DNA of 64,000 bases from Stramenopiles sp. TOSAG23-6. Its lineage: Eukaryota. A program made the translations under genes and the position numbers. Under the pieces are notes generated by a model, which made no database searches, was not told where the DNA came from, and saw only the letters and a program-made list of their open reading frames with translations. The stretch lies in contig LT635913.1 of NCBI GenBank assembly GCA_900128565.1, positions 1 to 64,000 of the forward strand, given 5' to 3'. Positions 1 to 63,800 of the stretch are shown piece after piece; the first letter of the stretch is position 1; the number at the start of each line of letters is the position of its first letter.

Positions 1-101
1 TGTATTTTGGAAAAATATTTCAAAAAAAAAAACTAAAATTTGTTAGGTACAAAATTCCGTACGAAAAATAAATTCGAAATTGAAAAAAAAATAAAACATA
101 C
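1..101 (-). other. Intron, repeated introner-like family copy A (3' end cut by window edge)
   Basis: Minus strand CAT|GTATGTTTT...CGTACGGAATTTTGTACCTAAC...GAAATATTTTTCCAAAATACA; nearly identical to the intron at 61074-61164; host ORF turns into Phe/Ile-rich noise exactly here. Confidence 0.8.
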
Positions 102-968
102 ATGTATCGATTTTATGCGACTTGCTACAGTACGAGAGCAAGTAAAGTACATTGGTGATTTACTAGATGCGACAGAAAACATTCGAGACTTTTCTGATAG
201 ATCAGCTGATATAAACGTGATCATCCCTTGATCTATATTATGTTTTTCAAATAGGGAAACGAGCATTTGGAACCAGCGGAACATGTGTTGTCCTGTATTT
301 TCACGGGATAAAACAACAACAGGTACACCTAACTCAACATTTCGTAGAACTTTCCGAAAGAGATCTAAGAAATTAGAAAAGTTTGAAACACATCCAATAT
401 AAGCAGCTGAGCGATTGATATTTATGGCTCCTGAAAATTCGTGCTCCAAAAGTTGGTCCCCCAAACGCTGTTCCACAATATTTGCTTGTGCAGATTCTTC
501 AATTTCAGTAAGCCCATCTTGTTTCAAATAGTCCATCGCCTGGTTTCCAACAAGAAATCCACCATGATTGGCAAATATTTCAGCTTCGACTGAGCGCACT
601 TCATTACGGTAATCTATTTTTGGTGGAACATATGTCAACATATGTTCAATCACTGCGTCGACTTCACCAGAAGTAGCCATTATACTATTACCATTTTCTC
701 GATTAAAGGCATCAACCGTATGGATTTTTTCACCACTCTTAAGTGAATCTCCTTTTAGAATAGTTACAATTGGATCTTCATACCATGTTTTGGCGTCAAA
801 AGAGTCTAGATATGATAGAGATTCAACACGTAAAGCTGTGGTATCATAATCAGGAATTCCTTCTCGTTTAAAGCATTTATCAAAATCGGTCGAAGCAAAG
901 TTATACGAGCGGGCATGAAAAGTTTGCCAGAACTGACGACGAACTAATGATTTATACCTAGCGAGCAT
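102..968 (-). CDS. Exon 1 of a gene continuing beyond the window; aldehyde-dehydrogenase-fold-like protein with probable mitochondrial presequence
   Basis: 289 codons before the GT donor; Arg/Ser-rich N-terminus; GCVSNFSNFLDL...LGVPVVV resembles the ALDH NAD-binding region (weak). Confidence 0.5.
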
Positions 969-1434
969 TCTCTTCAGAGGACGACGAGATTTAATAATGT
1001 CGATTATATCTCGAAAGAACTTGTCGTCGTGTGTTTTCTTTTAATATTTAGCTTGCATTTGATTTAGAGCTTCTTTTCCTTCTTTTCTTTGATGGATTTT
1101 CGAATTCTGATCGATCGTAGGTTTTCGTGTTTTTTTCATAAGAATGAAGAAGAAGCGTTGGGCAACTTGAGTCGTTGAATATCCACTGAAAATGCTTCGA
1201 TGTAGCGATTTGTAATCGTCCAACATTTTGGTATTGGTGGAATTGTGGCAGTGTTTTGAAAAAGACAAAGCTACTTTGATATAAAAGATGAACGCATTTC
1301 GTAATTGGGAACAGAGAAGTCACGAAATTAAAGGAATCGACAAATGAAAATACCTTTCCTTAAAGGGATTTCACCAATATTTATTAGAATGAGACACAAT
1401 TACAAGAATTTTATTAATACATATAGCTTCTATT

Positions 1435-1845
1435 TCATAAAATCTTGCTCGTTTCAACTTTTTCAGCAGCATTTACCTCTTCTACAGCTTGCCTGTAAGC
1501 ACTATTCAGTTTCTTTAATTGCTTTCTCAAAGCCATATTCTTTTCGAGTCTAACTTGGGTTGCGTATCTAGTTTCTTCGATACGACGTTTATCATTCGAT
1601 TCTTTCTGATTCCTTCGTTTCTTCATTCGCCGGAATCTACGACCTTTAGTTGGTGGAGCTTTGGCAACTCCACCGTTTTTCTCAAATTCTGAAAATGGAA
1701 AACCCCACTTTGGTTTTTCCAAACTTTCAAGTAACATACCGCTGTTTGATATGCTGCGATTTTGGATACTACAGATACGCACTAGGGAAGATTTGGCTAG
1801 TAAGCTACTACTACGTATTCTAAGCATTGAGATTACTGATGCCAT
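1435..1845 (-). CDS. Small basic protein, probably mitochondrial (mitoribosomal-like)
   Basis: MASVISMLRIRSSS presequence-like start, Arg/Lys-rich core, coiled-coil C-terminus; no family recognised. Confidence 0.5.
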   Translation of the reverse strand: MASVISMLRIRSSSLLAKSSLVRICSIQNRSISNSGMLLESLEKPKWGFPFSEFEKNGGVAKAPPTKGRRFRRMKKRRNQKESNDKRRIEETRYATQVRLEKNMALRKQLKKLNSAYRQAVEEVNAAEKVETSKIL

Positions 1846-2148
1846 TGTGTTGTTTTTGTCAATTATACCAACTACGTACTTTATATGAACTTCCAATGTC
1901 TGTCAACACGCCACATGCCGCTGCTATCGATTTTTTCCGGCCGTTTTTCGTGTTTTTTTATGCTGATCCGCTGACTACTCAGACTCAGCGTCTTGTGGTA
2001 AAATACAAACTTATACCAAGATTTCCTTTAAAACCTGGTAAATGCACTACTGCTTCATACATCACATTATATCGGCATATTAAAAATCGAACAGTTTAGC
2101 AATATATTAACTTTCAATAACTGATTATTATAAGAAAAGGGTTCCATA

Positions 2149-2961: not shown

Positions 2962-3378
2962 TGAAACATATTATACCAACCAAGTGAATACCTCTAGAGT
3001 AGGGTTAGGGTTACAAAAGGTACTTTCGTCCCCGGAAGGGTAATTCCAAAAATGACTTTAGAAACAAATATTTATATTTCAGTTTTCAATATATACTATA
3101 AAATCATACAGTGAATATTAGCAAGGTGTGTGCCACTCAAGACTTTTGAAATTTTTACGTACAAAATTTAGTACGGATTTCGAATTTCCTGAGTGACCTC
3201 GGATTATTTCTATTTTCAAAAGAATACTGCAATAAAAATAATATAAATAATGTCATAGATCTAAAGGATTTTTTATATACACACATTCTCTCAAAAAACC
3301 ATTCCCGTGTAAGGTGGTTTAATACTCTGAAGAACATAAATCCAAATAATCTATATAATTTATACATGACAACTCATC

Positions 3379-3462
3379 ATCTTCCATAATCCAATTTATA
3401 CAGGGAAGAAAAACATTTTTTATCTTCCATAATCCAATATATACAGGGAAGAAAAACATTTT
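3379..3462. repeat. 43-bp tandem duplication in the 3' region between convergent genes
   Basis: atcttccataatccaat(t/a)tatacagggaagaaaaacattt occurs twice. Confidence 0.85.
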
Positions 3463-3487
3463 ACGAAGTCTACTTACGATATGTTAG

Positions 3488-5224: not shown

Positions 5225-5357
5225 TTTGAGGAGGAATTATTTTCCTTGTTAATCAACAATATTTTCCCAGTTTCCCGCGCACGACACGAATTCGAAAGAC
5301 AATTGCGCGCACGAAAAATATTTTTGAGCGACCAAAATGACACGTGCGTCTGTGCGA

Positions 5358-5366
5358 TACCCGGTA
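5358..5366. promoter_or_regulatory. TACCCGGTA palindromic motif in a divergent promoter (one of 6 TACCNGGTA copies)
   Basis: Also at 8389, 10639, 25344, 31514 and 38873 (TACCAGGTA), all in 5' intergenic DNA. Confidence 0.6.
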
Positions 5367-5557
5367 CCTACTAATCTGCTACTAAAAATTTAATGCCGCG
5401 TACTATCTTGTAGAAGTAGAGAACTAGCAGTAGTAGGACCTATAGCTGGTGTGAAAAAAAACGCCTAGCCTGTAAAGATAACGAGCCGAGTAATTAGAAT
5501 TATTGTTTATCGCTCAATTACATACATAGCCTTATCTTTTATTTGGTGCCTTAAGAA

Positions 5558-6772: not shown

Positions 6773-6813
6773 GAAAAAGAAACTTTTAGACGAAATGAAT
6801 AATCACTAAGAAA
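6731..6813 (+). repeat. Tandem duplication of the last codons plus stop codon of the DUF1279 gene
   Basis: aagaaacttttagacgaaatgaat...aatcactaagaaa repeated immediately downstream. Confidence 0.8.
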
Positions 6814-18332: not shown

Positions 18333-18422
18333 ACCAATAATAAAAAAAATTGTAAAAAAAAATGTTGGGTATAAAATTTCGTAGGAAATTACTCCTTAAA
18401 AAAATCAATTTTGANAAAATAC
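18333..18422 (-). other. Degenerate introner-family copy B in non-coding (UTR) DNA
   Basis: Minus strand GTATTTT...CCTACGAAATTTTATACCCAACATTTTTTTT matches the family core; 3' end approximate. Confidence 0.55.
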
Positions 18423-18547
18423 TCTGTAAACAATAGCTAATCATATCAATATATTTTCTCAGCTGAAAAATTAAAAAAATGGTAAAACACAAAAAGTTGA
18501 CTACTATTTTAAATTTATATGCTATCCTTAATGAGTTAATGAATAAA

Positions 18548-20545
18548 TCATAATTGCATACTTTTGACTTGTTTGATGATATGCGACATTCTGATTTCAT
18601 CAATATTTCGCTGAATGTCCATTTTCCATCCCCTAATCTTACTGGGATGTCCAACGCAGTTAGTAGGTAACACTGGAACCACAAAGGGTACACGTTTACC
18701 TGCTATCCCTAGTTTCACCATACTATTTCCATCATTTCTACTCGATGACAATTCTTTGGATTCTTCATTACCTTTATTATTTTGTGTAGCTACTACTTTA
18801 CACACATTTGGGTGTGTTTGATTACTTTGTTTCATATTTTTACTGGCATTTTGATTAATATTGACACAATTTTGCTGTTTAAAAAAATCTGGCCACATAA
18901 CATCGTTGTCAAACGTTTTCGCTGTACCGTCTTCAACAGAAACATTACTGTCATCATTACCACTATTCTTAGTATTTTGTTTTGTGTTACTTATTTCAGT
19001 GTTCTTTGCTTTATTTTGAAGTTTTGAAACTTTCCCTGACTTTTTTAATTTTTTTTGTGCTTTGGAGACTATGCTAGGAGTATTGATAGTTATACTTTTT
19101 CCTTCACCAGGAAAGTTTGTTTTGGTATCCTTAGTAAATACAAAGGGTTTTAGTATGAGACTTGATAAAGAGACAGCAACATTATAATTTTGTTTCTCTT
19201 TTTCAGTTTTAAGAATAATTTTATGGTTTCGTGCAGTACAACCTTGTTCTTTGTTTTCAATGACAAACCGTTGACATGGGCTATTGCAACACGGATATAT
19301 ACCTAAATGTTTACCTGAATTTTGAATTCTTGTATTGCTAGAGATACCATCATTTGTATGTTTTGTCGAGAAACTTTTAAAAATTGGTTTTTTAGGGTGA
19401 TATGTGCAGTTTCCAATTTCAGCTATTGGAATGCGGCATTTACAACGTGCACAGTACACACTTCTAGAGAAGCCCCATAATTTCCAGTATTGTTCCGAGT
19501 AGGATAAACCTGCTTTTTGCATTATATCTATTTCCATAGCAACCGTCCATCCTTCTATTGGGCTATGTTGAGATATTACATTACCACGAAATCCGATAGA
19601 TATTTTAGTTTTTTTACAAATTAACTGAGAGATTTCGCTGGAGAGATAAATTTTCTCACAAAATTTACATTTTTTTAATAAACCTGTATTTTCTATCCAA
19701 GCCCCTGCTGATGGCATTTGAGGTATATCAGACAATCTAGCATCTGAACCTATTCTATCAACTTTTTTTTTTTTTTTGTTTTCTATAGTAGAAAAACTTC
19801 TCAAGAGTTGTTTTCCTTTGTTTTCATTGAGCTTTGGGGATTCTGACTTTTTGGAACATGATTTATGTAATAGATCAAATAGAACATTTTGTTGAGTCGC
19901 AAAAGCTTCGATTTTTTTTTGGTAAAGTTTCGGAATGATTTTTCCTCGCTGGTCCTCTATAACACCTAATATATTGCTAGGTAATATTGTGGCTAATCTA
20001 CGACACAAATCAGAACTCAAACAATTTAAATCCAGAGGTAAATTTACAATTGCTTGCAAGTTATTGCCAACAAATTCAATACATTTTGTAACAAGATTGT
20101 CCATGCCCAGGAAATCTGATGAAATTAGTATTGACACGACAATGTTTGTGTTGAGCTTTGGTAAAGTATTAGTTTTATGTATATATTGAACTAACCATTC
20201 AAAAATAGTGACATCACAGTGTACAGAGATATCAATATCATCATATGCTCCAGTACCGTCGAGGTACTTTGAGAAATATTTCATTTCTTTGAGCAAAATG
20301 TCTTTTTTACATACAAAGTCTCTATTTATTTGTCTTGGCTCATCACAAACGTGAATCAAAATTGTTTCAACCTCTGTCTCATCTATTTTCACTATAGGTG
20401 CATCTGTCGTGTGCATACTTGTCTGCGGGAGTTCTTTTGTTGAAGAATTAGTATTAAGTTTAGTTTCCTGTTTTTCATTATCAACCCCTGACAGAATTTC
20501 TAGTATTGGTTCCTCTAGCACCCTATATTCTAAGCCAGGATACAT
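18548..20545 (-). CDS. SANBR/KIAA1841-like (DUF3342, BTB) protein
   Basis: IHVCDE...RDFVC...LLKEMKYF...DISVHCDVTIFEWL, ILISSDFLGM, C-terminal QR.ID..RM. Confidence 0.88.
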   Translation of the reverse strand: MYPGLEYRVLEEPILEILSGVDNEKQETKLNTNSSTKELPQTSMHTTDAPIVKIDETEVETILIHVCDEPRQINRDFVCKKDILLKEMKYFSKYLDGTGAYDDIDISVHCDVTIFEWLVQYIHKTNTLPKLNTNIVVSILISSDFLGMDNLVTKCIEFVGNNLQAIVNLPLDLNCLSSDLCRRLATILPSNILGVIEDQRGKIIPKLYQKKIEAFATQQNVLFDLLHKSCSKKSESPKLNENKGKQLLRSFSTIENKKKKKVDRIGSDARLSDIPQMPSAGAWIENTGLLKKCKFCEKIYLSSEISQLICKKTKISIGFRGNVISQHSPIEGWTVAMEIDIMQKAGLSYSEQYWKLWGFSRSVYCARCKCRIPIAEIGNCTYHPKKPIFKSFSTKHTNDGISSNTRIQNSGKHLGIYPCCNSPCQRFVIENKEQGCTARNHKIILKTEKEKQNYNVAVSLSSLILKPFVFTKDTKTNFPGEGKSITINTPSIVSKAQKKLKKSGKVSKLQNKAKNTEISNTKQNTKNSGNDDSNVSVEDGTAKTFDNDVMWPDFFKQQNCVNINQNASKNMKQSNQTHPNVCKVVATQNNKGNEESKELSSSRNDGNSMVKLGIAGKRVPFVVPVLPTNCVGHPSKIRGWKMDIQRNIDEIRMSHIIKQVKSMQL

Positions 20546-21018
20546 TTGGAAATTCTCAATTAAACTTTGAAGATGTTCTTGTATCTATGAAGAGTTCATA
20601 ACGTTCACTGAAACGTTTGGTTAATATTTTTATTTTTGTCCTATACTATTTATTAGCTACTATAGAGTCATTTTATTAGAAAGAAGCTATACATCTTGAA
20701 CAGCTAGCCTAGAACATAGTATACATACTACTAAACTGATGATTGCTATTGTGTTCTAGACTTAGCTACTACTTACAACAGTAAAGTGTTACGATACAGT
20801 GTGTACACTTACTTCTACTATAACCGTATTGCAGGATATGATAGTAAGTTGTACGTAGTTATTAAGATATACAAACGGACACGACGGTTATAATAACGGT
20901 TTCAATAATTTTCCTTTATAGTATACTACCGGTTCCGTGGGTACTGTACTAGTCAAGAATGGAAGAAAATAAACGACGAAAACATTATAATACTGTAATC
21001 TGTAGAAATGCATAGTCA

Positions 21019-38258: not shown

Positions 38259-38726
38259 CTAGGCAAGCCAAGAGTGCATCTTATTGTCCAAATAAGCAGA
38301 TGTTATCTTCTGAGGGAATCTCTCGAGTACTTGACCGTTGCGACCAACAACGAACTTTGTAAAGTTCCACTCGATAGGTTCTGAGAATTTTCCAGAGCGT
38401 AGGAACTGATATACATCCTGAGTAAACTTACCATTGACATCAGCTTTCTCAAATAGGGAAGATGCTGGCAAGCCATACTTTTCAACATAAAAAGCTCTTA
38501 CTTCTTCGGGTGTCCCAGGTTCTTCATCACAAAACTGGTTACAAGGAAAGAATAATACGTCGAGGCCCTTGTCTGCATATTTCTTTCCAAGAGCTATAAG
38601 ACCTGGAACGTCACTGATATCTCACAAACTTGCAACATTTACAATCAGAACGACCTTACCACTAAATTGAGTGAAGGACACTTCTTGGCCTGAATTGTTT
38701 CTTGCGCAAAGGTCTGTAAACGACAT
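38259..38726 (-). CDS. Selenocysteine-containing glutathione peroxidase (155 aa, Sec35)
   Basis: GKVVLIVNVASL-TGA(38622-38624)-DIS...FPCNQF..EEPG...IEWNFTKF; frame is open across the TGA; SECIS downstream. Confidence 0.93.
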
Positions 38727-39066
38727 GATATTCAACTATTCTAGTGACAAAATGCGATGTACCCCCTACAAACGATTTCAATACAAAAACGACAAACTAT
38801 AATGACTAGCGAGTCTTTCTTAAAGTTTCTTTGCTTTTCTGTGTCGTTTGCAACGTAATAGAAGCGTCTGACTACCAGGTACCTACTGTATATGTGTTGA
38901 CACCAAATGCCCCCCCGTGGGAGTCTCAAAATTAATTATATTAACAGGTTTTTTATATAAATGGTAATTTATTTAGTAAAGCATAATCATGTAAATCATC
39001 TGCTCACAGAATACAAAGAATCGTAGTACTTATAATTCATCAAACTTGACCCAAAATTTTCATTTT

Positions 39067-44435: not shown

Positions 44436-45456
44436 TCATAAAATTGTCTCTGTTCTTTTTTTAGTACTACTTTGAACAATTTCTGCAACGCCACCCAAAT
44501 ATGGTTGGACAGCAAGAGTCCAATTACATGATCCAGAGACTGACGTCGATCCAATTTTTATATCATTCTTAAAGAATATTACCTTGATATTATCGTTGCA
44601 CACATTTTTGTGATTTTTTTGATTTTTTTGATTTGTTTTATTTTCATTTGCAACAATTTTTACTCCAATGGTGTCACCCTCCGTATATACGTTTTCATTT
44701 ACGCTGTTTTTTTCATCAACACCAAAAGACGTTTCTTTCCTATTATTCATCAATACTCCGCGTGAGTGCCAAACAATAGCATTTGGTGTTCTACCCAAAC
44801 TTTTGAATGGTGCTTTCATGCTGTTTTTTGCAATTCCTATTAAAATGTGTATAGTACTTGAATTATAATATTAATAAATAAGAGTATAACTATGACGGAT
44901 AATATTATATTTTTCAGTGCAAAATGTAGAAAATACCAGCAAAACCACCAACACCATTTTTGATTACTTTGACCTCCCAATAGCATTGAGGTTTTTCTTT
45001 ATTATACACTGCCAGACATGCACCATAGCCTGCTTGGCGAGTAGTCGCCACAACCGTTCCCATAGGAGAGATATCGAGATGTTGGTGATGTCTTCCCCAT
45101 ATACAACTCTGCAAATCGCGCTCATTTTTGTTTTGCTCTATATCTGAGAAAAGTTGCTGTGTCCAAAGCGGTACTCGTAATTCAGATATTTTTCTCGGCG
45201 TTTTTGTAATGCGTTTCACCGGTATTTTAGTGCCGTCCACTGCGATACCTCTAACCCGACGCGACCTTCGTTTTGGTAGAGGTGCAGTATTCTCTGTTTG
45301 TTTCTTTTGTTTATGAGTCAGTGTTCGCTTTTTTGGTTTACCGATTACAGCTGTATTTTTATTCGGGTCTAATCCAAGACTCCGTAAAACTGCTTCATTC
45401 TTTTTTATGTTTTCAAGGCGCCTTATTTCATAATTTGATAGTGTTTGCATTGTCAT
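44436..45456 (-). CDS. SPRY-like domain protein with LSNYEIRRLENIKKN N-terminal motif; 2 exons (45456-44937, 44836-44436)
   Basis: YWEVKV...GFAGIA...GDTIGVK...VIFFKND; GT-AG intron restores the frame. Confidence 0.72.
44837..44936 (-). other. Intron GT-AG, 100 nt, non-family
   Basis: GCT G|GTATTT...TTTTAATAG|GA ATT joins two ORFs in frame. Confidence 0.75.
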
Positions 45457-50700: not shown

Positions 50701-52911
50701 ATGAAAAATGGAAAAGAAACTTCTGAAGCCTCTACATCTACAAAAATCAAAATGAAAAAGTTTCAAAGTAAATCAAATATTGTGTCCAGCGATGGGTACT
50801 TGACAGTTTCACCTTCAAATTCTTCTACTGGAAATTCGTCAGCTGATCATGTAGAATTTAAAGTGCAAGCACCTGAACTCATTCGTATAGTCCTCCAAGG
50901 CTTGTCGGAGTTAGGCTATTACAAAACTGCGGAAACTCTCTCTAACGAGTCAGGTGTAACAATTCACTCTGAACAAATGGCGCTATTTCGTAGAAGTATT
51001 TTAGACGGGGATTGGACTCTTTGTTTAGAATTGATACCTCATTTAAAATTTTCTCAAACTTCTCAGTCTTCTCAAACCTCACAAATTGAGTTGGCTCGTT
51101 TTTTTATATTAAGAGAAAAGTATCTTGAACTTTTAGAACAAAAGAAAACCACAGAAGCCATCAAATGCCTTCGAACAGAACTGTCTGAGAGTTCATTACA
51201 TAATTCCTCTAAACAAAATTCTGCTGTTCAGGACAACAATGCAGCAATTAGATTTGGTGACCAAAGTTGTTCTCAAATGTTTGATAGTTGTCAATCATCA
51301 ACTGTATTGAACAGCTCAAGATTAAAAACCCTATCCCCTTTGGTTTTGTGTAGTACTAAAAAGGATTTATTGCTCAAGGCCAAATGGGCAGGTACAGAAG
51401 GCGGGTCTCGTATACATTTATTAAACAAATTCAATACTATATTGCAGCATTCAACCTTAGTACCAGAAAGTCGTCTTCGTACATTACTAGGTCAATCATT
51501 ACAAAATCAAATTGGAAAATCGTTATACCGTAGACCGAGGCATCAGCCATATTCCCTTTTGAATAATAACAAATGCATGCCACCTAAATTACCTACACGG
51601 GCTGTGTGTGTTTTAGAGGAGCATAATAATGAAGTTTGGCATATAGAGTTTTCAAAAGATAGCAACAAAATGTGTTCATCATCGAAAGATGGTACGACTA
51701 TAATCTGGGATACAAGAGCTATTAAAAACGATCAATTTACTAAAGGATTTTTGCCTGTTCCTATACTTCATAAGCTAAAGCCTCACGAGACAAAAGATAT
51801 ACCAGTGATGTTTTCAACATGGAGCCCAGACGATTTACTGATTGTGACTTGTCATGGAGATGGAAGCGTCTATCTTTGGGATGCGCTATCAGGTGATACT
51901 CGGTATAAATTAGTCGGTCATACATCTGCTGTAATATCAGCAGCTTGGCTTCCTGACGGGAAAAGTTTAGTCACAGGTGGAATTGATAAAAAAATTATAC
52001 TATGGGAAATAACGGAAAATATTCCTTCACCTCAAAATGATGTTACTATTAATATCATGAGTAATACACCTAATGGTACAACAAATGAAACAACAAATGA
52101 AACAACAAATGATACAACAAATGATACAACAAATGATACAACAAATGAAACAACAAATGAAACAACAAATGAAACAACAAATGGTACAACAAATGGTACA
52201 ACAAATGAAACAACAAATGATACAACAAATGATACAACAAATGATACAACAAATGATACAACAAATGATACAACTGATGGTAATATTACAGATACATCAC
52301 AGAGTTCAAGTTCATCATTTGATACTGAGTTAGCAGATGTTGGAGAGTTGGTTGAAGGGACAGAAAATATACCAAGTTCAAGCAACATAAGAATAATTTC
52401 TCCAACATACTTGTGGTTAGGTGTTCAAGTGAATGACATTGTTTTAAATCATTCTGGGACTTCTGTGATAGTAGCAGGTTGCAATAATCAGGTGTATATG
52501 TATAATTTAGTAAACCGCCAGAAAAAATCTGAAAGTTTTATAAAGGAAAGTGGGTCCGTCATGTCAATGAAATTGACTGATGATGGTCGTTATCTTTTGT
52601 TAGCTATTGCAAATAAAGATATACAAGTTTGGGATATACAAAAGCGCAAGTATGTACTAAACTTTAAGGGTCCTCGCTTAGGCCGGTATGTCATTCATTT
52701 TGCACTGGGTGGTGAAGGACAGTGCTTACTAGCATCTGGTAGTGAAGATTCTCAAATTTATTTATGGTATCGAATTACGGGTACTCCTCTTTCAGTGTTA
52801 TCTGGACATGCAGCAACGGTGAATTGTGTGTCATGGGCAACAGTGGATTCAGGAAAATCACCTATATTAGCTAGTTGCAGTGATGATCATACCGTTCGCA
52901 TTTGGCGATGA
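50701..52911 (+). CDS. WDR26: WDR26/Gid7-like CTLH-complex subunit (LisH-CTLH-WD40); N-terminus may extend upstream
   Basis: IRIVLQGLSELGY..TAETLSNESG, FRRSILDGDW, KYLELLE, VPESRLRTLL, HNNEVW, ASGSEDSQIY, GHAATVNCVSW. Confidence 0.85.
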   Translation: MKNGKETSEASTSTKIKMKKFQSKSNIVSSDGYLTVSPSNSSTGNSSADHVEFKVQAPELIRIVLQGLSELGYYKTAETLSNESGVTIHSEQMALFRRSILDGDWTLCLELIPHLKFSQTSQSSQTSQIELARFFILREKYLELLEQKKTTEAIKCLRTELSESSLHNSSKQNSAVQDNNAAIRFGDQSCSQMFDSCQSSTVLNSSRLKTLSPLVLCSTKKDLLLKAKWAGTEGGSRIHLLNKFNTILQHSTLVPESRLRTLLGQSLQNQIGKSLYRRPRHQPYSLLNNNKCMPPKLPTRAVCVLEEHNNEVWHIEFSKDSNKMCSSSKDGTTIIWDTRAIKNDQFTKGFLPVPILHKLKPHETKDIPVMFSTWSPDDLLIVTCHGDGSVYLWDALSGDTRYKLVGHTSAVISAAWLPDGKSLVTGGIDKKIILWEITENIPSPQNDVTINIMSNTPNGTTNETTNETTNDTTNDTTNDTTNETTNETTNETTNGTTNGTTNETTNDTTNDTTNDTTNDTTNDTTDGNITDTSQSSSSSFDTELADVGELVEGTENIPSSSNIRIISPTYLWLGVQVNDIVLNHSGTSVIVAGCNNQVYMYNLVNRQKKSESFIKESGSVMSMKLTDDGRYLLLAIANKDIQVWDIQKRKYVLNFKGPRLGRYVIHFALGGEGQCLLASGSEDSQIYLWYRITGTPLSVLSGHAATVNCVSWATVDSGKSPILASCSDDHTVRIWR
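52072..52279 (+). repeat. 12-bp coding tandem repeat (TTN[D/E/G])n, about 17 units, inside a WD40 loop
   Basis: acaacaaatga(t/a) and acaacaaatggt repeated. Confidence 0.95.
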
Positions 52912-53745: not shown

Positions 53746-54198
53746 TAGCCCAAAGAATAAATATACGTATACTGTACAAACGATTCAATACCTCACTGAT
53801 AAATATGGGCACAACACAGTGTGATAATAGCTTGCCTTAATCTCGATTAATATTATTATAAAAGGGTCCACCCTCTTTAGGTCTTGCCACACTCCTGATT
53901 ATTGTTCGATACTCCCGATATATAATATAAACCGCGATATAGTATCTCACCTCGAGAGCTCGCTCAAAAAAAATCGAATGTTTCAAACACGAAATATTTA
54001 GTATTATTGTACAAAAAAAAATTGAAGCTGACTCTCACAATCTAAATCGTTCTTCAATCAAGAATACTACGCGAATACGACTACGGTAGCTATTTTACTA
54101 GCCTACGTAGCTACAAGTACTAAATTCCTAGTTTAGTATTACAAAAGCGCTTGAAAGATCCTGTACAATTATCGAAATTATTCCTTGTAAAAGATAGA

Positions 54199-55017
54199 AT
54201 GTTTTTAATGCGTTCTAGATATTTAGTGCATTGTATGCGTATTTCTACTCCATTTGCGCGTCGAAGGAATAGGTTATTTATATCATCCAGCAGCTATTTC
54301 GACCGCAATTTTAGTATTTTTCCGGATAATAAAAAAGAGAAAGATAATCTTTCTACAAAACAAGAGCATGACACTCTTGATCAAGAGAAGTTTTATACAA
54401 TGGGTCCATTACGCATTCGTGCTGTAAACGTGAACCTCCCAAATGCTCTGACAATAGCACGCATTCTTGCTTCACCTCCTTTATCTGTGTTATATTTACA
54501 AGGTTATTACAAGAGTGCCTTTTTTTTATTCATGTCTGCTGGTGCGTGCGATTTTTGGGATGGTTATCTAGCTAGAAAATGGAACCAACAAACTGTGTTG
54601 GGTGCTATGCTTGATCCAGTTTCCGATAAAATTCTAGTCGCAGCATTAGCCTTGCCTATGGCGTATGACGGTACTTTACCAATATGGCTTGTCACTTTAA
54701 TTATAGGACGTGACGTTGGTCTTGTTGCTGGTGGTTTCTGGCATCGCTTTCGAACAAAACAGCGTGATGAATTTCTATTTGATACAAAAAGAGTGAATTG
54801 GACTGTGGAACCAACATTTGTAAGTAAGTGTAATACAGCTGGTTTAATTGCACTTGTAAGTTTTGGCTTAACAAATAGTGCATTTTCTTTACCTGGTGAT
54901 TTTCTTATACAATGGATGTCGTATGGAGTAGGTTGTACTACTGCTTGGTCTGCTGTCGAGTATATTAATATGTTTGTAAAGAATGACGCTTTCAAAGATC
55001 GAAAGCGAGTCGATTAA
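54199..55017 (+). CDS. Cardiolipin synthase (CDP-alcohol phosphatidyltransferase, CRLS1-like)
   Basis: NLPNALTIARI, DFWDGYLARKWNQQTVLGAMLDPVSDK, IIGRD, PTFVSKCNT. Confidence 0.88.
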   Translation: MFLMRSRYLVHCMRISTPFARRRNRLFISSSSYFDRNFSIFPDNKKEKDNLSTKQEHDTLDQEKFYTMGPLRIRAVNVNLPNALTIARILASPPLSVLYLQGYYKSAFFLFMSAGACDFWDGYLARKWNQQTVLGAMLDPVSDKILVAALALPMAYDGTLPIWLVTLIIGRDVGLVAGGFWHRFRTKQRDEFLFDTKRVNWTVEPTFVSKCNTAGLIALVSFGLTNSAFSLPGDFLIQWMSYGVGCTTAWSAVEYINMFVKNDAFKDRKRVD

Positions 55018-55078
55018 AATGATGAATTTAAATATAGTAAAATTTTGAGACTAGAAACGAAAAATAATTTTTAAAAAT

Positions 55079-57145
55079 TTATAAATTAATAGTCGTCAAC
55101 TCTGTGCCGTCATCGTCCATATCACACTGCGGTTCATCCATATTTCCATGAAGTCTGACATGAACATCATCAGTGTATAATATTTCCGAGTTTGGCATTT
55201 TATCCGAACTCTCTAAGGAATCACTTGGTCGGCCTAAAGGTACTAAATATGGAATGAGAAGTATTGGAAGTAATCTTGTTAAACTGCGGGTCAAAACAAG
55301 CAACTCAATATTATGAAATTCAGGAGCACGAACACCTCCAAAGACTTCCAATAGCCCAACTCCAACATATCCTCCAATGACAGAACCAAAATTTGAAAGG
55401 CCCATTGTCATTGCAAAAAGTGTTGCCTCCATTTTTGGTGGGCATAATTTTGCTGCTAGAATAAAAACTGGCATTGTATTAAATCGACTTATTAAAGGGG
55501 ATATAACTTCTTCGCCTAGCATGAAAGCTTTATCTGATATTCCAAGACTTTTGTTCCAACGTTGAACCCAAATAAGATCCATGTATTGTGAAAAAAAAAT
55601 GTTTTAGTATAAAAAATCCATAGGTACGAAATTTCATACCAACAAGAAAAAACAATTAAATTCATTTTTCAAAACGTACATGAGATTGACAAATACAAGT
55701 GCCAGTTGAGTCATTGCAAAGATTTTTCTGTATGGCCATGAACTAAAATATCTATTGTATAACGCCGTCCCAATGACAAAAAAAATATTTCCTAGAACGC
55801 CAAACCAGGAGTGAATAATGTGAAAAAATATTTTTTTTGTCAAGAAAAATGTTAGGTACAAAATTTTTATGGTAAAAAATGAATGAAAATTCAATTTTGA
55901 AACCATACATAATTTAGGTGAAAAACAGGGACGTTCTCCATAGACCCCATTACAATTTTCTGGGGTTTCTTTTGACCAGTAGTAGATAACTTCTGAATAT
56001 GGTTGCATTGCTCCTTGTAAGAAGATATAAATTGTTACTTGAGCTAATACAGGATTGATTTTAGATTCATAGTAATGTATAACGTAGCAAACAACTACAG
56101 CAATGAGTATACTAAATATACATATTACTGAATTATCAGATACAATAGAAGCAAAACCACCCTTTTCTGAAGAACATATTTTGTATAGTTTGATATTTGT
56201 TAGGTACAGAATTTGGTATAAAATTTAGGTAAAACATTCATGATGAAAACATACCATTGTCAAAGATATAGCACAAACAAATAAAGCCATTTTGATCATC
56301 ACGCCTTGTTTACCATTATTAATTGCATCTTTTAAAGGTTGAATATTTGAACATTTTCTATACGGAGGTTTGTCACGCTCTTCGGGTAGCCATCTTCGCC
56401 AAGCAGGAACCAGTACGGCTAGTGCTGGTATAACACATAAACCGAGAAGGACACGGCTACCAAACCATTCATAAAGAATTCCAGAAGAACAACCAGCAAA
56501 AATTTGACCAATTCCTAAAGACCCCCAGCATAACGTCTGCAAATCAGCGGCATATTTTGGGCGTTCACGACATCTTTTAGCGACAGATGCATCGATCATT
56601 ACATCAGGGGATGCGATGGAGTAATTAAACATAATCAATAATATTGTAACTATTGCAATGCCCAACCCAGGAGAAAAGGCAAATGATAGAGTTGAAAATA
56701 CTCCTGAAAATCCAGCTATACCAATATATGGAGACAGGTGAAGTCCTGAAATTGGAAGTGTATCACTCAATACACCATACATAGATTTAAGTTGCCATGG
56801 AATGTTCCCCACTCCTGACACAACCTGCATTCTATCGGAAGATAGTCCAAGCCCTTTGTGCATTGTTGATTCCGTATCAGAGAGCAGATACCGCATTGCG
56901 AAGAATCCCCAACCTTCACCAATTCCTTGGTTCACACCATACACAGCAACGACAGAAAGCACAAAATATAGACCGAATGTTCTCGTTAACCGGGAAAAAT
57001 ATTTGGCCAGCGTACAAGGAAAAAACATTACATAGTCCACGAATTCTGGATTAACAGGAAGTGTATGAAAGTCACGTATACTTGAATCCATACTTTGGTC
57101 TAAATCAAGGCTATCATCTGTCAATGGATCAAACTTTTGGTCCAT
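55079..57145 (-). CDS. BT1 folate-biopterin transporter; 4 exons (57145-56255, 56161-55909, 55812-55680, 55580-55079), 592 aa
   Basis: PWQLKSMYGVLSDTLPI, DVMIDA, ADLQTLCW, D.IWVQRWN..LGISD, AKLCPPKMEATLFA..MGLSN; exon phases add up. Confidence 0.9.
55581..55679 (-). other. Intron, family copy D, GT...AT, 99 nt
   Basis: CTC AT|GTACGT...GGTATGAAATTTCGTACC...TTTTTCACAATACAT|G GAT gives VNLMDLIWVQRWN. Confidence 0.85.
55813..55908 (-). other. Intron, family copy E, GT...TC (best guess), 96 nt, stop-free
   Basis: TTA T|GTATGG...TGTACCTAAC...AAATATTTTTTCACATTATTC|AC TCC TGG gives FSPKLYSWFG; no AG near the end. Confidence 0.65.
56162..56254 (-). other. Intron, family copy F, GT-AG, 93 nt
   Basis: ATG|GTATGT...CTGTACCTAAC...TTCAGAAAAG|GGT. 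Confidence 0.88.
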
Positions 57146-57419
57146 TGAGTGTGCTGTATTGGCAGAGTTGATATAATTATAACTTAGGCATTTGAATGAT
57201 ATTAACAAGTCATAAAAAATAAAATTGACAGCATGCGCAAAAAAGTAATTATTCGTGTTTTTTTTTTCTGTTAGGACTTCGACTTGACTACTTCGGTCAA
57301 AGGTATTATATATTACCCAGCTAGGGTTATAGTGTCTCTCGAATTCTTGCTCTAAACACACTTCTCTTCACACACTTCTATACCTGTCGAAAAAATATTT
57401 ATCTTAATCTTTTTATATA

Positions 57420-58226
57420 ATGGGCAAACGTGACGAAAATTCTCTCACTAGTACGAAAGACTCGTCAAGCATGGAAGATTCTAATGGTCGTGCATTGAAG
57501 AAACAAAAGATGAGCAAAAGCGATGCGCCGCCCATCAAGGTAAAGGTCGATGCTCCTACGGCTTCACCTGGAATAGTGTCTTCGACGGTAAATACGGCAA
57601 CCCCCCCAATAACGCCCTCTAAAGTTACAGATGAGAACAATGAAGACAAAAACAAAGTAAATACAAATATAGATTCAACCAAACCTTCAACTGTATTATC
57701 CGAATCACAGTGTAAACTTGCGCAGTTCCAGGGTTGGTGGAAACTCGACGTTCAAGCGTCCGAAACTATGAAACCATACCTGGAAACGCTTGGTTTGAGC
57801 GCTACGGCTGTCAAAGCCGCATTAAAAACAGAAACAGAATTCCCATCATTTATTCAATTTAAAGTAACGCCGAAAGAAGTTACTATCAAGCGGAAGTCCA
57901 GACTAAGTAGGCCATCGGATGAAAAAGTAGGTATAAATTATAAGTTGGGTATGACAACCTCTTCAGAAACAAAATACGGACAAGTGATTTCAAATGCTAC
58001 AATTCTTAAAGGTGGTATTCTAAATGTATCTGAAACTAGAAAAGTAAATGGCGAAAAAATTAAATTAAGTAGTCAACGAAAGCTTTTGGAGACAAAAGGA
58101 AATACTTTTAACGTAATTGAACAAATAATTACACTTCATCATATCGGTAATAAAGTGACTGTTACTACAAAGAGAATTTGGCGTAGGCAAAGGAGAGACT
58201 CATCGAATATATTTGTCGCGAGTTAA
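57420..58226 (+). CDS. Hypothetical protein with a C-terminal lipocalin/FABP-like beta-barrel
   Basis: FQGWWKLD..SETMKPYLETLGL resembles the FABP N-terminal GxW motif, followed by beta-rich sequence. Confidence 0.6.
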   Translation: MGKRDENSLTSTKDSSSMEDSNGRALKKQKMSKSDAPPIKVKVDAPTASPGIVSSTVNTATPPITPSKVTDENNEDKNKVNTNIDSTKPSTVLSESQCKLAQFQGWWKLDVQASETMKPYLETLGLSATAVKAALKTETEFPSFIQFKVTPKEVTIKRKSRLSRPSDEKVGINYKLGMTTSSETKYGQVISNATILKGGILNVSETRKVNGEKIKLSSQRKLLETKGNTFNVIEQIITLHHIGNKVTVTTKRIWRRQRRDSSNIFVAS

Positions 58227-58353
58227 AATGTATCAATAGTTAGTATGTGGAGAAATTCCTTAAATATTTATTTAGTACTTTTATATAATTTACTACTAAA
58301 ATATAAATGAAAAAACATTTTTTTTTTACTTTTCATAGTTTTCAAAAGTTGTG

Positions 58354-59802
58354 TCATTTCATATCCGTTAGTATTCTATTTATATAATTCATCATTTTCC
58401 GAAGACTTCTGCGACTGGATTTTTTTCGCGGTTCAAGGTTATCTTCCAACTCATTTTTGATGAATTTTAGTTTTTTATTTAACCAATCTGTAGACGCACC
58501 ACGCCATTCCGAATGAGAAGAACAGTATAACAATAAACCTGAGTTTTTGTTATTTTTATAATTTTTCATGGTAGAGACAGTAGACGTTGACGCAGCTGCA
58601 TTCAAACAACCATTACAAAGTAAAACTAATGACCGACATAACTCACAACGACCTGTGTGTCTATCATAAGTTTCATTGGGAAACGCACAATATTCACATT
58701 TTCCAATTATAGTGGGTTTCTTCTGGATCTGTTGATGCCTTTTTCTCTTTTTTGTGGTATCAGATGAAATATTATCTACACAATCGTTTGATACTGGACG
58801 TGCAATACCACGCCCATCAAATGTGAAATTACTGCCGCGGAAAAGACCATGTTGCCATATTTCTTTTTCTTCGACACTTTCATCTTTTTCGTTGCATTCA
58901 TGTTGACAATTTTCTATTTTTTTTTGATTTTTTGTTTTTTTCTCACAGATTTTTTTATCCGTACCATTACCTTTTACACGATTACATGCGAATGATTCTA
59001 AATATCGATGAATTCCACCCTTAAGCTGAAACACATCTTCTACGCCGTGTCTTTTCATAAGAGCAGAGGCTGTCTCACAACGGATGCCACCTGTACAATA
59101 CATTGCTACTCTTTTATTCTTCAAGTTTAATTTAGAAGCATTTTCATCTAACCATTGAGGAAATGCAGCAAAATTTCGCGTGTTTGGTAAAATTACTTCT
59201 GCGCCTTTTGCCTTTGCGGTGTCCCCAACAGAAAAGTTACCTATACGCCATTCGTATGGATTTCTACAATCTATTACACATAATGGTTTTTTACTTGAAT
59301 TTGTGCCAAAATTCGTATCTAATGGTTGATGAAGATTTGTTTCATTAGAAAATTTGAAATCTCCTGTATCTAATAGAGAATGCCACTCTTGAGGGGACAA
59401 ATGAATACCGGCAGTGTTACTTTTCAAATCAATAGGGGTTTGCATTCCGAGAGAGCATATTTCTTTGACAACTCGACATCGTAACTTTTTACCCTCAAAA
59501 TGCACTGAAGCATCAGGTCCATCACTTTCACTGAGTTTCCAATCAATATTAGTTGATTCAAATAAGGACATATCTTCTGTTTGTCTCATGTACTCATATA
59601 TATTCGCTGAAGTTCCACCAACTGTACCATTTATACCCCGACGACTAATCCGAATACGCCCAGCTAAAGATAGTTTTGCACACAAAGCTGTCTGAGCTGA
59701 AGCAACTGCGGCAGGATCATTCACTTCCGTGTATAAATAATATAAACAAACTAGTCCATTTTTAATAGATTCATTTGTAATGTTCGAACAAGAACCTGTC
59801 AT
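58354..59802 (-). CDS. TSTD2/TrhO (UPF0176) rhodanese-domain protein
   Basis: LYYLY, LAGRIRISRRGINGTVGG, IDCRNPYEWRIGNF, MYCTGGIRCE, QLKGGIHRYL, FTFDGR. Confidence 0.9.
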   Translation of the reverse strand: MTGSCSNITNESIKNGLVCLYYLYTEVNDPAAVASAQTALCAKLSLAGRIRISRRGINGTVGGTSANIYEYMRQTEDMSLFESTNIDWKLSESDGPDASVHFEGKKLRCRVVKEICSLGMQTPIDLKSNTAGIHLSPQEWHSLLDTGDFKFSNETNLHQPLDTNFGTNSSKKPLCVIDCRNPYEWRIGNFSVGDTAKAKGAEVILPNTRNFAAFPQWLDENASKLNLKNKRVAMYCTGGIRCETASALMKRHGVEDVFQLKGGIHRYLESFACNRVKGNGTDKKICEKKTKNQKKIENCQHECNEKDESVEEKEIWQHGLFRGSNFTFDGRGIARPVSNDCVDNISSDTTKKRKRHQQIQKKPTIIGKCEYCAFPNETYDRHTGRCELCRSLVLLCNGCLNAAASTSTVSTMKNYKNNKNSGLLLYCSSHSEWRGASTDWLNKKLKFIKNELEDNLEPRKKSSRRSLRKMMNYINRILTDMK

Positions 59803-60164
59803 TACTAAAACTAATACGTAATAATTTAATAAAGTCCAAAGCTGCTTGCGTGTGAAAAATCTTCTTGATTGACTTGTCGTGCTGAATTCTTCTTCAGATG
59901 GCCTTCAGATGATTTGATTTTGATTTATTTCGTGTGTGTCAATAAAACGGTTAAATAACGGCTGGACAGTAGTATATATTATTGGCTACAGGGTACCCCT
60001 ACACTACTGCTGTAGTACACGTAGGCACCGCATTACTTCTACTACTGATACAAGAACTATTACAAAACGCACATTAAATTTACAATATATCTCTAGCTAA
60101 AACGCCCATATAGCATTAGATTGAGATTATTTTGCAGAAACTTTACGTTTGATATTTTACATAA

Positions 60165-60719
60165 ATGTCAAAGTTTGGGTCACACACGAAAAACGCATTT
60201 CCTTTAGATACACCGTCTGTATTCTATGTCGTTGGTGCTACATCACACGATCCTCTACATCCTCCGGAATATGCCATGACAATGATACCAAATAATATAG
60301 GTACAAAGTCATCAGTATCAAAACAGAATACTATGAAAAAACAATCTCAAACAAGTGGGAAATTCTGGTCAACTACTGGTGGCTTTCCACAGGAAATTAT
60401 CTTAGAGACTGAGGAGTTATGCAAAGTGCACTCATTGAAACTTGCCACAACAGGTGCTGCTTACTTAACTATACGGTTATATCCTGAATCTCATAATTGT
60501 AATGAGGTAGCGATGAGTGTTGTCACTCTTGAGAAATCAGAGCCCTTCAATGTCGGATTCCCTCGTCTACAACGTAAAATAGTTCACTTTTCAGACCAAC
60601 CACCTTGCCGTAGAATTAAAATAGTAATAGAAAAAGTATACAATCAATTTGCGACATTGAGTGATGTACACGTAAATAGTTCACCAATTGAAAGTATAGA
60701 AGAAACAGGAGTAAAATAA
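60165..60719 (+). CDS. IFT25: Intraflagellar transport protein 25 (HSPB11)
   Basis: ATSHDPLHPPE, FWSTTGGFPQEIIL, LQRKI, IKIVIEKVYNQFATL. Confidence 0.8.
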   Translation: MSKFGSHTKNAFPLDTPSVFYVVGATSHDPLHPPEYAMTMIPNNIGTKSSVSKQNTMKKQSQTSGKFWSTTGGFPQEIILETEELCKVHSLKLATTGAAYLTIRLYPESHNCNEVAMSVVTLEKSEPFNVGFPRLQRKIVHFSDQPPCRRIKIVIEKVYNQFATLSDVHVNSSPIESIEETGVK

Positions 60720-60873
60720 TAAAAGGAACTATCTTTTTTAATCATATTCTACTTTTTCACTTGTAATAGCCCTAAATTCACAATAAAAACACTTATTCAG
60801 TAAAATAGCACAGTTTTTCCGATGCTTGAAGTGTTTCGTATTACTACCACACACGCTTGTTACTCCGTTGTAC

Positions 60874-63800
60874 TTACCAAGTTGCTTCACTTGGGTATTT
60901 TCTGTTATTCGTCACTATATTTTGCCTCGCGGATTCCATGATGTTAAGCTGTTGTTTTTCCAGAGTTATCTTGCGAATCCGAGCAGCTGCTGTACTGCCA
61001 TCCCTATTTTGTTTCATTCCGCATATAGAACAACCTTTACTAGGTAAAATATGGGAAGGATTAATAAAGGTACATGTATTTTGGAAAAATATTTCAAAAA
61101 CAAAAAACTTGTTAGGTACAAAATTTCGTACGAAAAATAAATTCTAAAAAAAAATAAAACATACATGTGTTACATTTCCATGGTGCATTTTGTTTTTCTG
61201 TATTATCACTATGCCAAACACTTGTTGCGCTTTTCTTCTTCGGTATACTTTTCCATGATTTTATGGAGATGTTGGAAAGATTTGCATTATTTTCATCATT
61301 TAGATGACTTTGATATTGAAAATTCGAGGTTTGAAAATGTTCACTACTTCTGATATAATTTTCCATCATAGACGATTTTTCATTAGCTTGTATTGTAGAG
61401 GGATGACGACTATTATTAGAATTGAACGTATTCATGCCAGATGATTCGAAATTATTACTTGTTTTTTTTTGGATCGAATGACGCGGGAAACTGCACAATT
61501 CACATTTTGTTGCATCACGATTAAAATTCTCATATGTACACATTTTACAAACCCAATCGGAGGAGGTAGAAGAAAAGGAAACCATGGAGTTACATCTCCC
61601 ATCAATTATATCTAATTCTGAATCATCATCGCGTGTATACGCTGCTTGTACTTGCTGTAATTGTTCTTCTGCGGCCGCCGCTAATGCTTTCAATTTTCTT
61701 GTTTCATCGTCAGCTTTCTTTGCGGCTATGCGATTTTCATATTCAATGCGTTCTTGTTCAATACGACGTTCTTGTTCAATACGACGTTCTTGTTCAATAC
61801 GACGTTCTTCTTCAATGCGACGTTCTTCTTCAATACGACGTTCTTCTTCAATACGACGTTCNAGTTCAAGACGCTCTTGTTCAATACGTTGTTCAATACG
61901 TTGTTGTTCAAGACGTTTCTGTTCAATATTCTGAGATAACACAAAGTCCAAAGTCTCGTTTGCAACATCTGCACATTCGCGACAAGCTGCATTAGCACAA
62001 ATAACAGCAGTATAAGCAGCAGATGCCGCGTTGACACAAAAGGTCTCATTATCAAGAGAATTTGTATTATCAAACTCATTAGCAGCATTGATCATTTGCA
62101 GAGTTCCATTTTTAAATTGGTAAGATTTTGAAGGAGTAATCATCAAAGAATTATTGGCATCATTTACTGCAGCATATTGATCATCATGAAAAGTATTGAT
62201 TACTTCATTCTGTTTAAATATATTTGTATCATCTTTCAATTCTTGTTTCGATCCTTCCAGTGAAACTGTAGCTTTATCTTGTGGTTGTCTTGTAATAATA
62301 TTTGATTCAACGGCTGTTGATTTCCATACATTTTTACTATATGTAGCAGCCTTCGGCAAAGTAGTTGCTTTCTTTCTCCATGAATCTATTTCTGATCGTC
62401 CTACGGTTTGTTCTATAGGGTTTCTTGGAAAGTATGTATTGTGAAAAAATATTTCAAAAAAAAATGTTAGGTATAAAATTTCGTACCAAAAAAAAACTAG
62501 ATTTGAAATTCATGATGGAAATGTACATAGCGGTTTAGAAATTCTTGCAGTTGTACTAGAATGTTTCTCTCGTTGGCTAGGACGTTTGGAAGATATAGGT
62601 GGATAATTTACATTGTTGACTCCATTCGTGTATTTCGTGTATTTTTTTTTTGTTGTTGATGTTGTACTGATTGAAGTTGTTGACGATGAGGCAGAGTTTA
62701 TATCGTTCACTTTCGCTCGAGGGACCAAATTTGATTGAGATACAGTATTAGAAGTTGCTGATGTCACAGGTACATCTGGATTCCTTTGAAGAATTTCACA
62801 CACCATTTCAATAGCACGAATGCATGTATTGTGAAAAATATTTTTTTTTAGTTACAAAAATCGTTAGGTACAAAATTTGGTACGAAAACAAAAATCAGGT
62901 AGAAAAGGGATGATGGAAATGTACATGCATTAGATGATGGTCCTTTGACAACAAGTTCATTAAGACCTTTGTACATTGGTTTTGATGACTCTTGTACAGC
63001 TAGAGAAGTACCTGCATTGTAAAAAAAATAGAAATTAGAAATTCGTTAGGTACAAAATTTTCTAGTAAAAAAAATTAAATCTAAAATTCATAATTAAAGA
63101 GTACCAGTCTCTCGCATAATACGTTTGATGTTGCAACCTGAGGTACCTATTACAGTACCACGCTCTCTTGCAGTAAGTGAATGAAATGGTATGTAGGAAG
63201 CAAACCTTTGCAAAAATTCTGTGGCTTTTGTATGAGCGGCTTGAACTGCCGTGTCTGTACCCGTTATTGTAGCGATGAAAGTTTTCCGGTCAATTGAATA
63301 AGTTGCACCTGTTTCATCTTGAATTCGTTGTATTGTCGCACCTCCAGGACCAATGAATTTAAGCATTTTTTCAAGTGAGCCAAATTCAAACGTTTTCTGT
63401 GAAGATGACATTGGGCGGGGTTTCTTTTGAGATTGTGAGTTTCGTTTGACTGGAGCAACAACAGTTTTTAATGGTACCTTACGAGCTCGTGTGTATGAAG
63501 GAAGGACTCCACTCTTCCCCCAGGCACTCCGCACTATTCTAGGCTTAGGATGAGATTGATTTGACAAGCCACCATCATCTATATTTGATGTTGTGATGGA
63601 TTTGACTGAATCGATGTTAGATCTACAATAAGGACAACTAGCTGCCTGTTTCTTTGCTAGAAAGGTCTGACGCCAGCTAGATAAACACCCATCGCAGAAT
63701 TGATGACGGCACGGTCCTATTTCCACATCAACCAGATTAACCGTACAAACAATACATATGCCTTCAGAATCACTCTCCATACAACTGTTAATTTTATCAT

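Follow-up and report, generated by a model that had tools for sequence, protein, structure and literature searches.

Introner-like introns with a probably relaxed choice of 3′ splice site in a marine microbial eukaryote

The analysis presented here concerns the first 64,000 nucleotides of contig LT635913.1, from Stramenopiles sp. TOSAG23-6 (hereafter, the window), in which one short element occurs ten times, always on the minus strand: nine copies form introns, distributed over four genes of that strand, and the tenth is non-coding. The reading that we regard as probable is that these copies form an introner family, consisting of ~90-100-nt non-coding intron elements, combined with a relaxed choice of the 3′ splice site. 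A profile search built from the copies gave 10 matches in the window at E 1e-9 or better, the next best match having E 0.057. When each copy was left out of its own profile, 10 of 10 were recovered (E 1.7e-13 to 1.6e-4) and the best non-family match always had E of at least 0.05 (128 kb, both strands counted). This bears out the architecture that a first-pass annotation, made from the letters alone, had seen in nine introns and one additional copy; the single position given there for each intron proved to be its last base.

The intron family and its abundance

The copies of the family are the following:

1-101, minus strand: family intron, donor G at 101; truncated at its 3′ end, where the window edge leaves out the last base
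32212-32300, minus strand: family intron, 89 nt, GT..AG, in an EF-hand/acyltransferase gene (Pfam, reading frames)
55581-55679, minus strand: family intron, 99 nt, GT..AT (or AT..AC), in a BT1 transporter gene (RNA contig)
55813-55908, minus strand: family intron, 96 nt, likely TC end, in the BT1 gene (frames, fit to the homologue P0002, 3′-end register)
56162-56254, minus strand: family intron, 93 nt, GT..AG, in the BT1 gene (Pfam profile continuous at 224/225, fit to P0002)
61074-61164, minus strand: family intron, 91 nt, GT..AT, in a RING/KH gene; highest metagenome depth of the copies
62434-62526, minus strand: family intron, 93 nt, GT..AT, in the RING/KH gene (frames)
62824-62924, minus strand: family intron, 101 nt, GT..AT, in the RING/KH gene (frames)
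63012-63104, minus strand: family intron, 93 nt, GT..AG, within the KH domain region of the RING/KH gene
18344-18424, minus strand: non-coding family copy (profile E 9.9e-10; leave-one-out E 1.6e-4)

The non-coding copy lies ~125 nt downstream of the stop of the gene at 18548-20584, in the same orientation. The four host genes are unrelated, with different Pfam content or none. The host of the copy at 1-101 is the open reading frame (ORF) at 33-1040, which has no Pfam family; its identification as a bacterial aldehyde dehydrogenase was rejected, given that the protein-cluster score of 0.93-0.94 was accompanied by only 146-154 shared features and falls below the reliable level.

Similarity among the copies runs along the whole element, spacers included, and beyond the splice signals. 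Common to them are a stretch like TYCATCATGAATTT that follows the donor, then GTAC-AAATTT-GTAC, a near-palindrome, then the ATATTTTTTCAYA block and finally a tail of 6 nt. Identity over the 45 family pairs has a mean of 0.74 (range 0.65-0.97), against 0.55 ± 0.11 and a maximum of 0.70 for shuffled partners (n = 225). The copies at 1-101 and 61074-61164, described earlier as nearly identical, are indeed the most similar pair, with 88 of 91 aligned positions identical and four short indels. The motif GTAC-N8-GTACCTAAC, with up to two mismatches, has 9 matches where 0.64 are expected, a number reached by 0 of 100 shuffles. All nine are on the minus strand; seven lie in family copies, and the remaining two are a weak core at 3154 and unrelated exon sequence at 63138. 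Exact GTACCTAAC occurs 7 times against 0.13 expected, always on the minus strand and within copies. A scan of the whole window with Rfam gave no match at the gathering score, and hence no known RNA family in the introns.

The sense orientation of the genic copies also holds, every one of them being on the minus strand of a minus-strand gene. The non-coding copy is likewise sense to its neighbouring minus-strand gene, and none of the copies lies in the ~17 plus-strand genes. The profile search found 0 of 10 copies on the plus strand and hence no mixture of orientations outside genes of the kind expected of a DNA transposon or MITE; with one or two copies non-coding, this is a weak test. Counting ~6 independent loci, and with 25 of 42 genes on the minus strand, the chance of this arrangement is ~0.04, and the bias alone was called not significant.

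The abundance of the family was examined in X3, a seawater DNA metagenome. Single-copy bins of the locus have depths of 4.5-14.5, about 7, whereas bins that bear copies reach 56-116 (the BT1 introns), 1,131, 2,629, 5,172 and, at the copy at 61074, 33,024, these being summed contig depths, which are not equal to copy number. The low-complexity T-run at 58677-59010 reaches only 14.5 in X3, and therefore the excess depth is specific to the copies. A total of 5,025 X3 contigs match, 1,285 of them at least 99% alike, and eight long backbone pieces are listed; the contigs break at the high-depth copies, and one contig of 3,071 nt spans the three low-depth BT1 introns. Ten copies per 64 kb would scale to thousands per genome. 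Taken together, similar introns in four unrelated genes with spacers alike, the lack of the motif in both other introns of the window and the thousands of similar metagenome contigs support the introner reading of the first-pass annotation.

One more site resembles the family in part:

3149-3177, minus strand: weak match to the palindromic core only, between convergent genes (E 0.05-0.13, not significant)

This 29-nt near-palindrome, GTACTAAATTTTGTAC, is like the family core, and the upstream GTATTC...GAAAAT resembles the family 5′ block. Judging from these likenesses, the site may be a decayed family copy.

Splicing and the position of the 3′ cut

Evidence that the copies are removed comes from reading frames, protein domains and RNA. 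The Pfam profile of BT1 is split over three ORFs (12-224, 225-301 and 298-431), and the RING/KH gene consists of five ORFs, which come into one frame once 93, 101, 93 and 91 nt are removed. Across 61074-61164, the removal restores a W-x-C-x2-C...C-x2-C pattern, which we take for a zinc finger of the RanBP2 type; the ORF had no match in any family search. RNA contigs came from the metatranscriptome runs X6, X9 and X10, which cover a small part of 54001-64000, so that uncovered parts carry no information. Record 4 of X10 (151 nt, depth 6) lies on 55679-55758 and 55509-55579 with no letters between; it removes 99 nt, 55580-55678, which is equivalent to 55581-55679, and reads ...CTCAT/GGATC... (the slash marks the junction). 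Whether it is spliced RNA or an intron-free allele, this contig fixes the boundaries of the copy. RNA support is thus direct for one of the nine copies, with frames and domains restored at the others. Record 29 of X9 stops exactly at 62527 with 19 unplaced letters, which is weak support for the intron at 62434. The intron at 55813, being 96 nt long, is in frame and stop-free, and P0001, an ORF call on a metagenome contig, reads through it; it may be partly exonised, or tolerated as a protein insertion when unspliced.

The 3′ ends of these introns differ in their last bases. The junction at 55581 can be read as GT..AT, AT..AC, TG..CA, TA..TG or CA..TA, never with AG, and the junctions at 61074, 62434 and 62824 likewise have no possible AG reading. 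For the copy at 55813 no in-frame AG or AT is available, and a gapless fit to P0002 (BT1, 44% identity) puts a TC end at 55813. The same protein is gapless only if this TC end is combined with an AG end at 56162 (...LAM/G...), which also disposed of an alternative GT..CA end for the latter intron. P0003 (acyltransferase, 58% identity) is gapless across ...LPVH/YPT... only with AG at 32212. The final dinucleotides of the nine copies are therefore AT in four plus the cut copy, TC in one and AG in three, and the last 22 nt, anchored at the junctions, align without a gap. Since the 3′ ends align gap-free whether they are AT, TC or AG, the 3′ cut appears to fall at a homologous, fixed place in the element whatever its last bases. 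The distance from the branch A to the 3′ end is 33-42 nt across copies. A rule in which the cut falls at the first YAT after the branch site was ruled out by an earlier TAT in the copy at 61074.

Two introns of the window lie outside the family, and only these two were available for comparison:

40050-40149, plus strand: non-family intron, 100 nt, GT..AT, in a catalase-peroxidase gene (exon alignment to solved chains)
44837-44936, minus strand: non-family intron, 100 nt, plain GT..AG (reading frames)

The family profile has no match in either of them. Because neither has the architecture, the family motif is not the organism's general intron consensus. In the catalase-peroxidase gene, the alignment of exon 1 to solved chains ends with S118 and that of exon 2 begins with W119; TG..TA or TA..TG are alternative readings, and an AG reading is impossible. 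The gene itself (39668-42047, plus strand) is of bacterial type, matches solved chains with E 2.5e-230 and has this single 100-nt intron. Two further intron candidates of a crude scan, at 2038 and 1476, were discarded, as the frames show a plain start and a plain stop codon instead.

A non-AG end is thus found in at least six introns. Given that a 5′ GT is the sole reading common to all, GT..AT is the most economical description of them. It is supported that the host tolerates non-AG acceptors, and the catalase-peroxidase intron shows their use outside the family. The relaxed use of acceptors proposed in the first-pass annotation is consistent with the removal of 55581-55679 in the X10 contig, with the abutment of the catalase-peroxidase exons and with the in-register AT, TC and AG ends; an AG-independent 3′ cut has as its basis one RNA contig, two structure or homologue alignments and the register of the nine copies.

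The end of a copy is also related to its divergence. The AT-ended copies are most alike (identity 0.80-0.97) and have the highest metagenome depth; in the AG- and TC-ended copies, divergence is greater and depth lower. This fits new copies that arrive with AT and later gain AG by one or two substitutions, and two subfamilies fit equally. Terminal helices of 5-10 bp that pair both junctions, partly using exon bases, are predicted in five of five AT-ended copies, with only 5 bp in the cut copy at 1-101. Folding z-scores are modest, from -0.4 to -2.4, and +0.3 for the cut copy. In the predicted fold of the catalase-peroxidase intron there is no such junction-pairing helix. We put forward, as a tentative idea, that the place of the 3′ cut depends on position, or on pairing between the two ends of the intron, and not on AG; that an element supplying no more than a donor and a branch site, and terminating within its own CATG target duplication, could thereby have reached thousands of copies; and that introns would be born GT..AT and later domesticated to GT..AG by point mutation.

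Junctions, possible routes of spread and rival readings

Each copy presents, in order, a yeast-like donor GTAYRT, a T-rich stretch and the 16-nt near-palindrome GTAC-AAATTT-GTAC, which runs into a CTAAC branch site and is followed by a second T-rich block, ATATTTTTTCAYA, and the fixed 6-nt tail. In the mechanism envisaged, the element is removed by the major spliceosome, with the 3′ cut at one fixed place regardless of the last two bases, these being AT in the presumably youngest copies and AG or TC in the more diverged. Young copies sit at CAT/G sites, and removing the element and one repeat restores the reading frame exactly. In diverged copies the left arm of the palindrome has decayed with no compensating change, and GTACCTAAC, with the branch site, stays intact. 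Since this arm decays while the branch site is kept, the comparison of copies suggests that the central palindrome matters for spread rather than for splicing.

The junctions show a flank preference. CAT precedes the donor in five of nine copies (background 0.015, P 9e-8) and AT in seven of nine (background 0.108, P 5e-6). Over the nine sites, direct repeats of 2-7 nt at the junctions comprise CATG (two copies), ACATGTA, AT and GGTACT. CATG stands at both junctions in three of the four complete young copies: at 55581, at 61074 as part of the 7-nt repeat ACATGTA, and at 62824, where the joined exons form a 12-nt palindrome. Inverted ends are restricted to ATGTA...TACAT, 5-7 nt, and terminal inverted repeats (TIRs) of at least ~10 nt are lacking.

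Insertion of DNA at the palindrome CATG with a 4-bp duplication is the route that we slightly favour, at a little under an even chance. Here, the first CATG duplicate would supply the donor G and the 3′ cut would come after the CAT of the second. A less likely, still serious route goes through RNA: the excised intron would be reverse-spliced into CAT/G of other transcripts, copied into DNA and recombined into the genome, with no target duplication. It would account for an element that equals the intron to the base with nine 3′ ends in register, for every copy being sense to the neighbouring gene (that at 18344-18424 included), for inverted ends of just 5-7 nt, for the unequal flanks of the copy at 62434 and for two X6 contigs with joints of the element 3′ end to its 5′ end, as full-length intron circles would give. 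On the other hand, it gives no reason for a 3′ exon that starts with G, as the CATG at both junctions of three of four complete young copies requires. There is no reverse transcriptase in the window, the DNA run X3 has far more of the end-to-end joints, and most non-fungal introner families show DNA signatures according to parts of PMC9860276.

The joints themselves deserve description. The best-supported ones in X3 connect 61165-61168 to 62433-62437 or to 62823-62826, with 0-2 nt between (e.g. 21 and 13 contigs), joints with sides below 30 being unreliable at such likeness. The same joints between the element 5′ and 3′ ends occur in the two X6 RNA contigs. They could be head-to-tail tandem copies that share one CATG, or circular forms.

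Homologues bear on whether the sites were once intron-free. P0002 is continuous over all three BT1 sites and P0003 over the acyltransferase site, so the four testable sites are uninterrupted and the alternative that intron positions are shared and ancient fails where it can be tested. A protein search with the large RING/KH exon (61112-62509) gave no homologue at E 1e-5, candidates being probably swamped by a low-complexity repeat. We infer that the copies reached their present sites, until then free of introns, by transposition, and that their AG ends are a later development. The same sites speak against a reading in which nothing moved and the architecture is simply the organism's extended splice-signal consensus in old introns of an intron-poor genome. 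Such a reading could draw on the donor, branch site and pyrimidine tract, which are part of the similarity, on the similar length of all copies and on the long, rigid intron signals that intron-poor eukaryotes keep. Nevertheless, it is contradicted by the two non-family introns, which lack the motif, by the spacers shared between the copies at 1-101 and 61074, by a non-coding copy that has no splicing role to conserve and by thousands of contigs at least 90-99% alike. We consider it largely refuted, and very improbable.

It might also be argued that acceptor choice is not really relaxed and that the young copies are AT..AC introns (/ATGTAYRT ... ATAC/), whose termini are the only alternative to G..G known to be viable. 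In each of the four complete young copies both cuts can be moved 2 nt to the left, and A-C termini work in both spliceosomes. Yet neither the catalase-peroxidase intron nor the copy at 55813 can be read as AT..AC, and the shift would put the GTAYGT donor 2 nt from the cut. The U12-type is excluded by its usual definition, given that the 5′ site differs from RTATCCTT and that 33-42 nt separate the branch site from the 3′ end. An AT..AC identity of the young copies is accordingly improbable, in our judgement.

Several observations weigh against a mobile family with relaxed 3′ ends. P0002 and P0003 are distant and come from a GC-richer organism, their sequences are assumed to be plain ORF calls, and introns may have been lost there. 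No presence/absence polymorphism was seen in X3, and X3 record 8 carries all three BT1 introns. The spliced RNA amounts to one contig, which could come from an intron-free allele in the RNA library, and X6 record 23, a second RNA contig, extends unspliced over 22 nt of the copy at 62434. With respect to insertion, the flanks of this copy are unequal (TATG vs CATA), and CATG is the same word in most copies, which makes a duplication inseparable from element ends combined with a target preference, a caveat also made in part of PMC9860276. Were CATG a duplication, only 2-3 nt of inverted ends would be left, an odd feature in a cut-and-paste transposon, and a Pfam search of 51 ORFs of the window found no transposase, integrase or reverse transcriptase. 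Depths in X3 may include other organisms. Finally, a 19-base core searched in a metagenome contig collection gave 13 chance loci, none with a family copy (the core alone matches, at GC 27-56%), and the same core had no match in a viral contig collection.

Host, significance and relation to known systems

The window is AT-rich (GC 0.34-0.40), and its ~17 plus-strand and ~25 minus-strand genes, counted from the ORF list, are long ORFs, densely packed, most of which have ordinary eukaryotic Pfam domains. The host genome is AT-rich, compact and intron-poor. Nearly all of 54001-64000 is found again in two small sequencing runs of 2015, from which it may derive. Three seawater metagenomes of 2024 contain a share of 0.45-0.82 of its sampled words, and metatranscriptomes from seawater contain a small share; therefore, the host is a marine microbial eukaryote, uncultured or little studied. 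Other features of the window were noted. Coding tandem repeats occur at 51993-52340 (12-nt unit, ~20 or more copies, inside a WD40/LisH gene) and at 61731-61882 (18-nt unit, ~8 times, giving (EERRIE)n in the RING/KH gene), and position 61862, within the latter repeat region, is an N. At 58677-59010, two RNA runs pile up to depths of 424 and 3,437 with loose ends that are T-runs, a pattern that suggests cross-matching of poly(A)/T-rich sequence with the coding strand, which is T-rich here, rather than expression. A glutathione peroxidase gene (~38259-38740, minus strand) has an in-frame TGA at 38622-38624, at the position of the catalytic residue (...VNVASL*DIS...), and its Pfam match is confined to profile positions 42-108, downstream of this TGA, which probably encodes selenocysteine.

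Bursts of intron gain are at present best explained by introners, which many marine protists are already known to have. If our reading is true, the family offers a natural system for studying the second splicing step in the absence of AG, since its copies keep one register and vary in nothing but the last bases. It would also provide an age series within one family, from abundant AT-ended to diverged AG-ended copies, in which intron maturation can be followed. Moreover, gene predictors and introner screens that assume GT/AG would miss such families and fragment the genes of uncultured marine eukaryotes. Should position or pairing indeed set the 3′ cut, the copies would form a natural series from transposon insertion to ordinary intron, and a major-type spliceosome would routinely accept U, or any base, as the last nucleotide of an intron.

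According to parts of PMC9860276, about 5% of the genomes surveyed, and 17% of aquatic species, contain introners, whose splice sites are recruited variously from target duplications. The screens of PMC9860276 and PMC12130899, as far as these parts describe them, start from annotated introns, with unfamiliar ends checked by hand and 3′ ends other than AG/AC held suspect. A GT..AT family could be missed because such screens start from annotated introns and distrust unfamiliar ends. No description of the motif or of a GT..AT introner family was found in the literature, the per-genome supplementary lists of both papers being outside the scope of the search. The single-cell genome papers on uncultured marine stramenopiles (PMC5269757, PMC5778133, PMC8163842) treat introns in passing or leave them unmentioned in the main text. 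The introners of Micromonas, Aureococcus, Symbiodinium, Chrysochromulina, Florenciella and other marine algae and aquatic protists, as parts of PMC9860276 and PMC12130899 present them, are likewise short non-coding intron elements, with many copies in unrelated genes of a marine host. As in our family, the element bears part of the splice sites, a short target duplication may provide another part, and the exact message is restored. Unlike the introners in the parts of these published screens considered here, the young copies of our family end in AT and have very short inverted ends.

Repeated introns with non-canonical ends are also described, in part of PMC7789003, for Amoebophrya, the nearest published parallel for non-canonical introners bounded by repeats. 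There, introns have complementary ends of 8-20 nt and boundary repeats of 3-5 nt, where helices of 5-10 bp are predicted and repeats of 2-7 nt are found in the present family; a predicted helix brings the exon ends together, as is also predicted here for the AT-ended copies. The Amoebophrya introns, to the extent covered, have no clear terminal signature, the donor signal being lost as well, and the U1 components of the host look degenerate, whereas in our case GTAYRT and CTAAC are textbook donor and branch signals, with variation in the last two bases only. The two families are not similar in sequence, and the host is here AT-rich, compact and intron-poor.

U12-type introns tolerate several 3′ terminal dinucleotides, the 3′ site being set largely by position; their 5′ site is RTATCCTT, and TCCTTRAY, the branch site, stands 10-26 nt before the 3′ end. 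The family does not share these features, with donors GTATGT, GTACAT, GTACGT and similar and a branch A 33-42 nt from the 3′ end. Non-canonical introns of tunicates have been linked to transposon insertions. Fungal introner-like elements are ~100 nt long, carry full splice signals, have no clear TIR or target-site duplication, and are always in sense orientation, reverse splicing being regarded as their route of spread. They belong to filamentous ascomycetes, have canonical GT..AG ends and bear no sequence relation to our family. Such elements are mentioned in part of PMC9860276. The non-canonical introns of tunicates (Fritillaria/Oikopleura) and euglenids, as portrayed in parts of PMC13326754 and PMC4770533, have other terminal dinucleotides, occur in other lineages and have lost the normal donor, which is retained here. 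In comparison with all these systems, the unusual part of the present family is a 3′ cut at a fixed position, independent of AG, together with textbook donor and branch signals.

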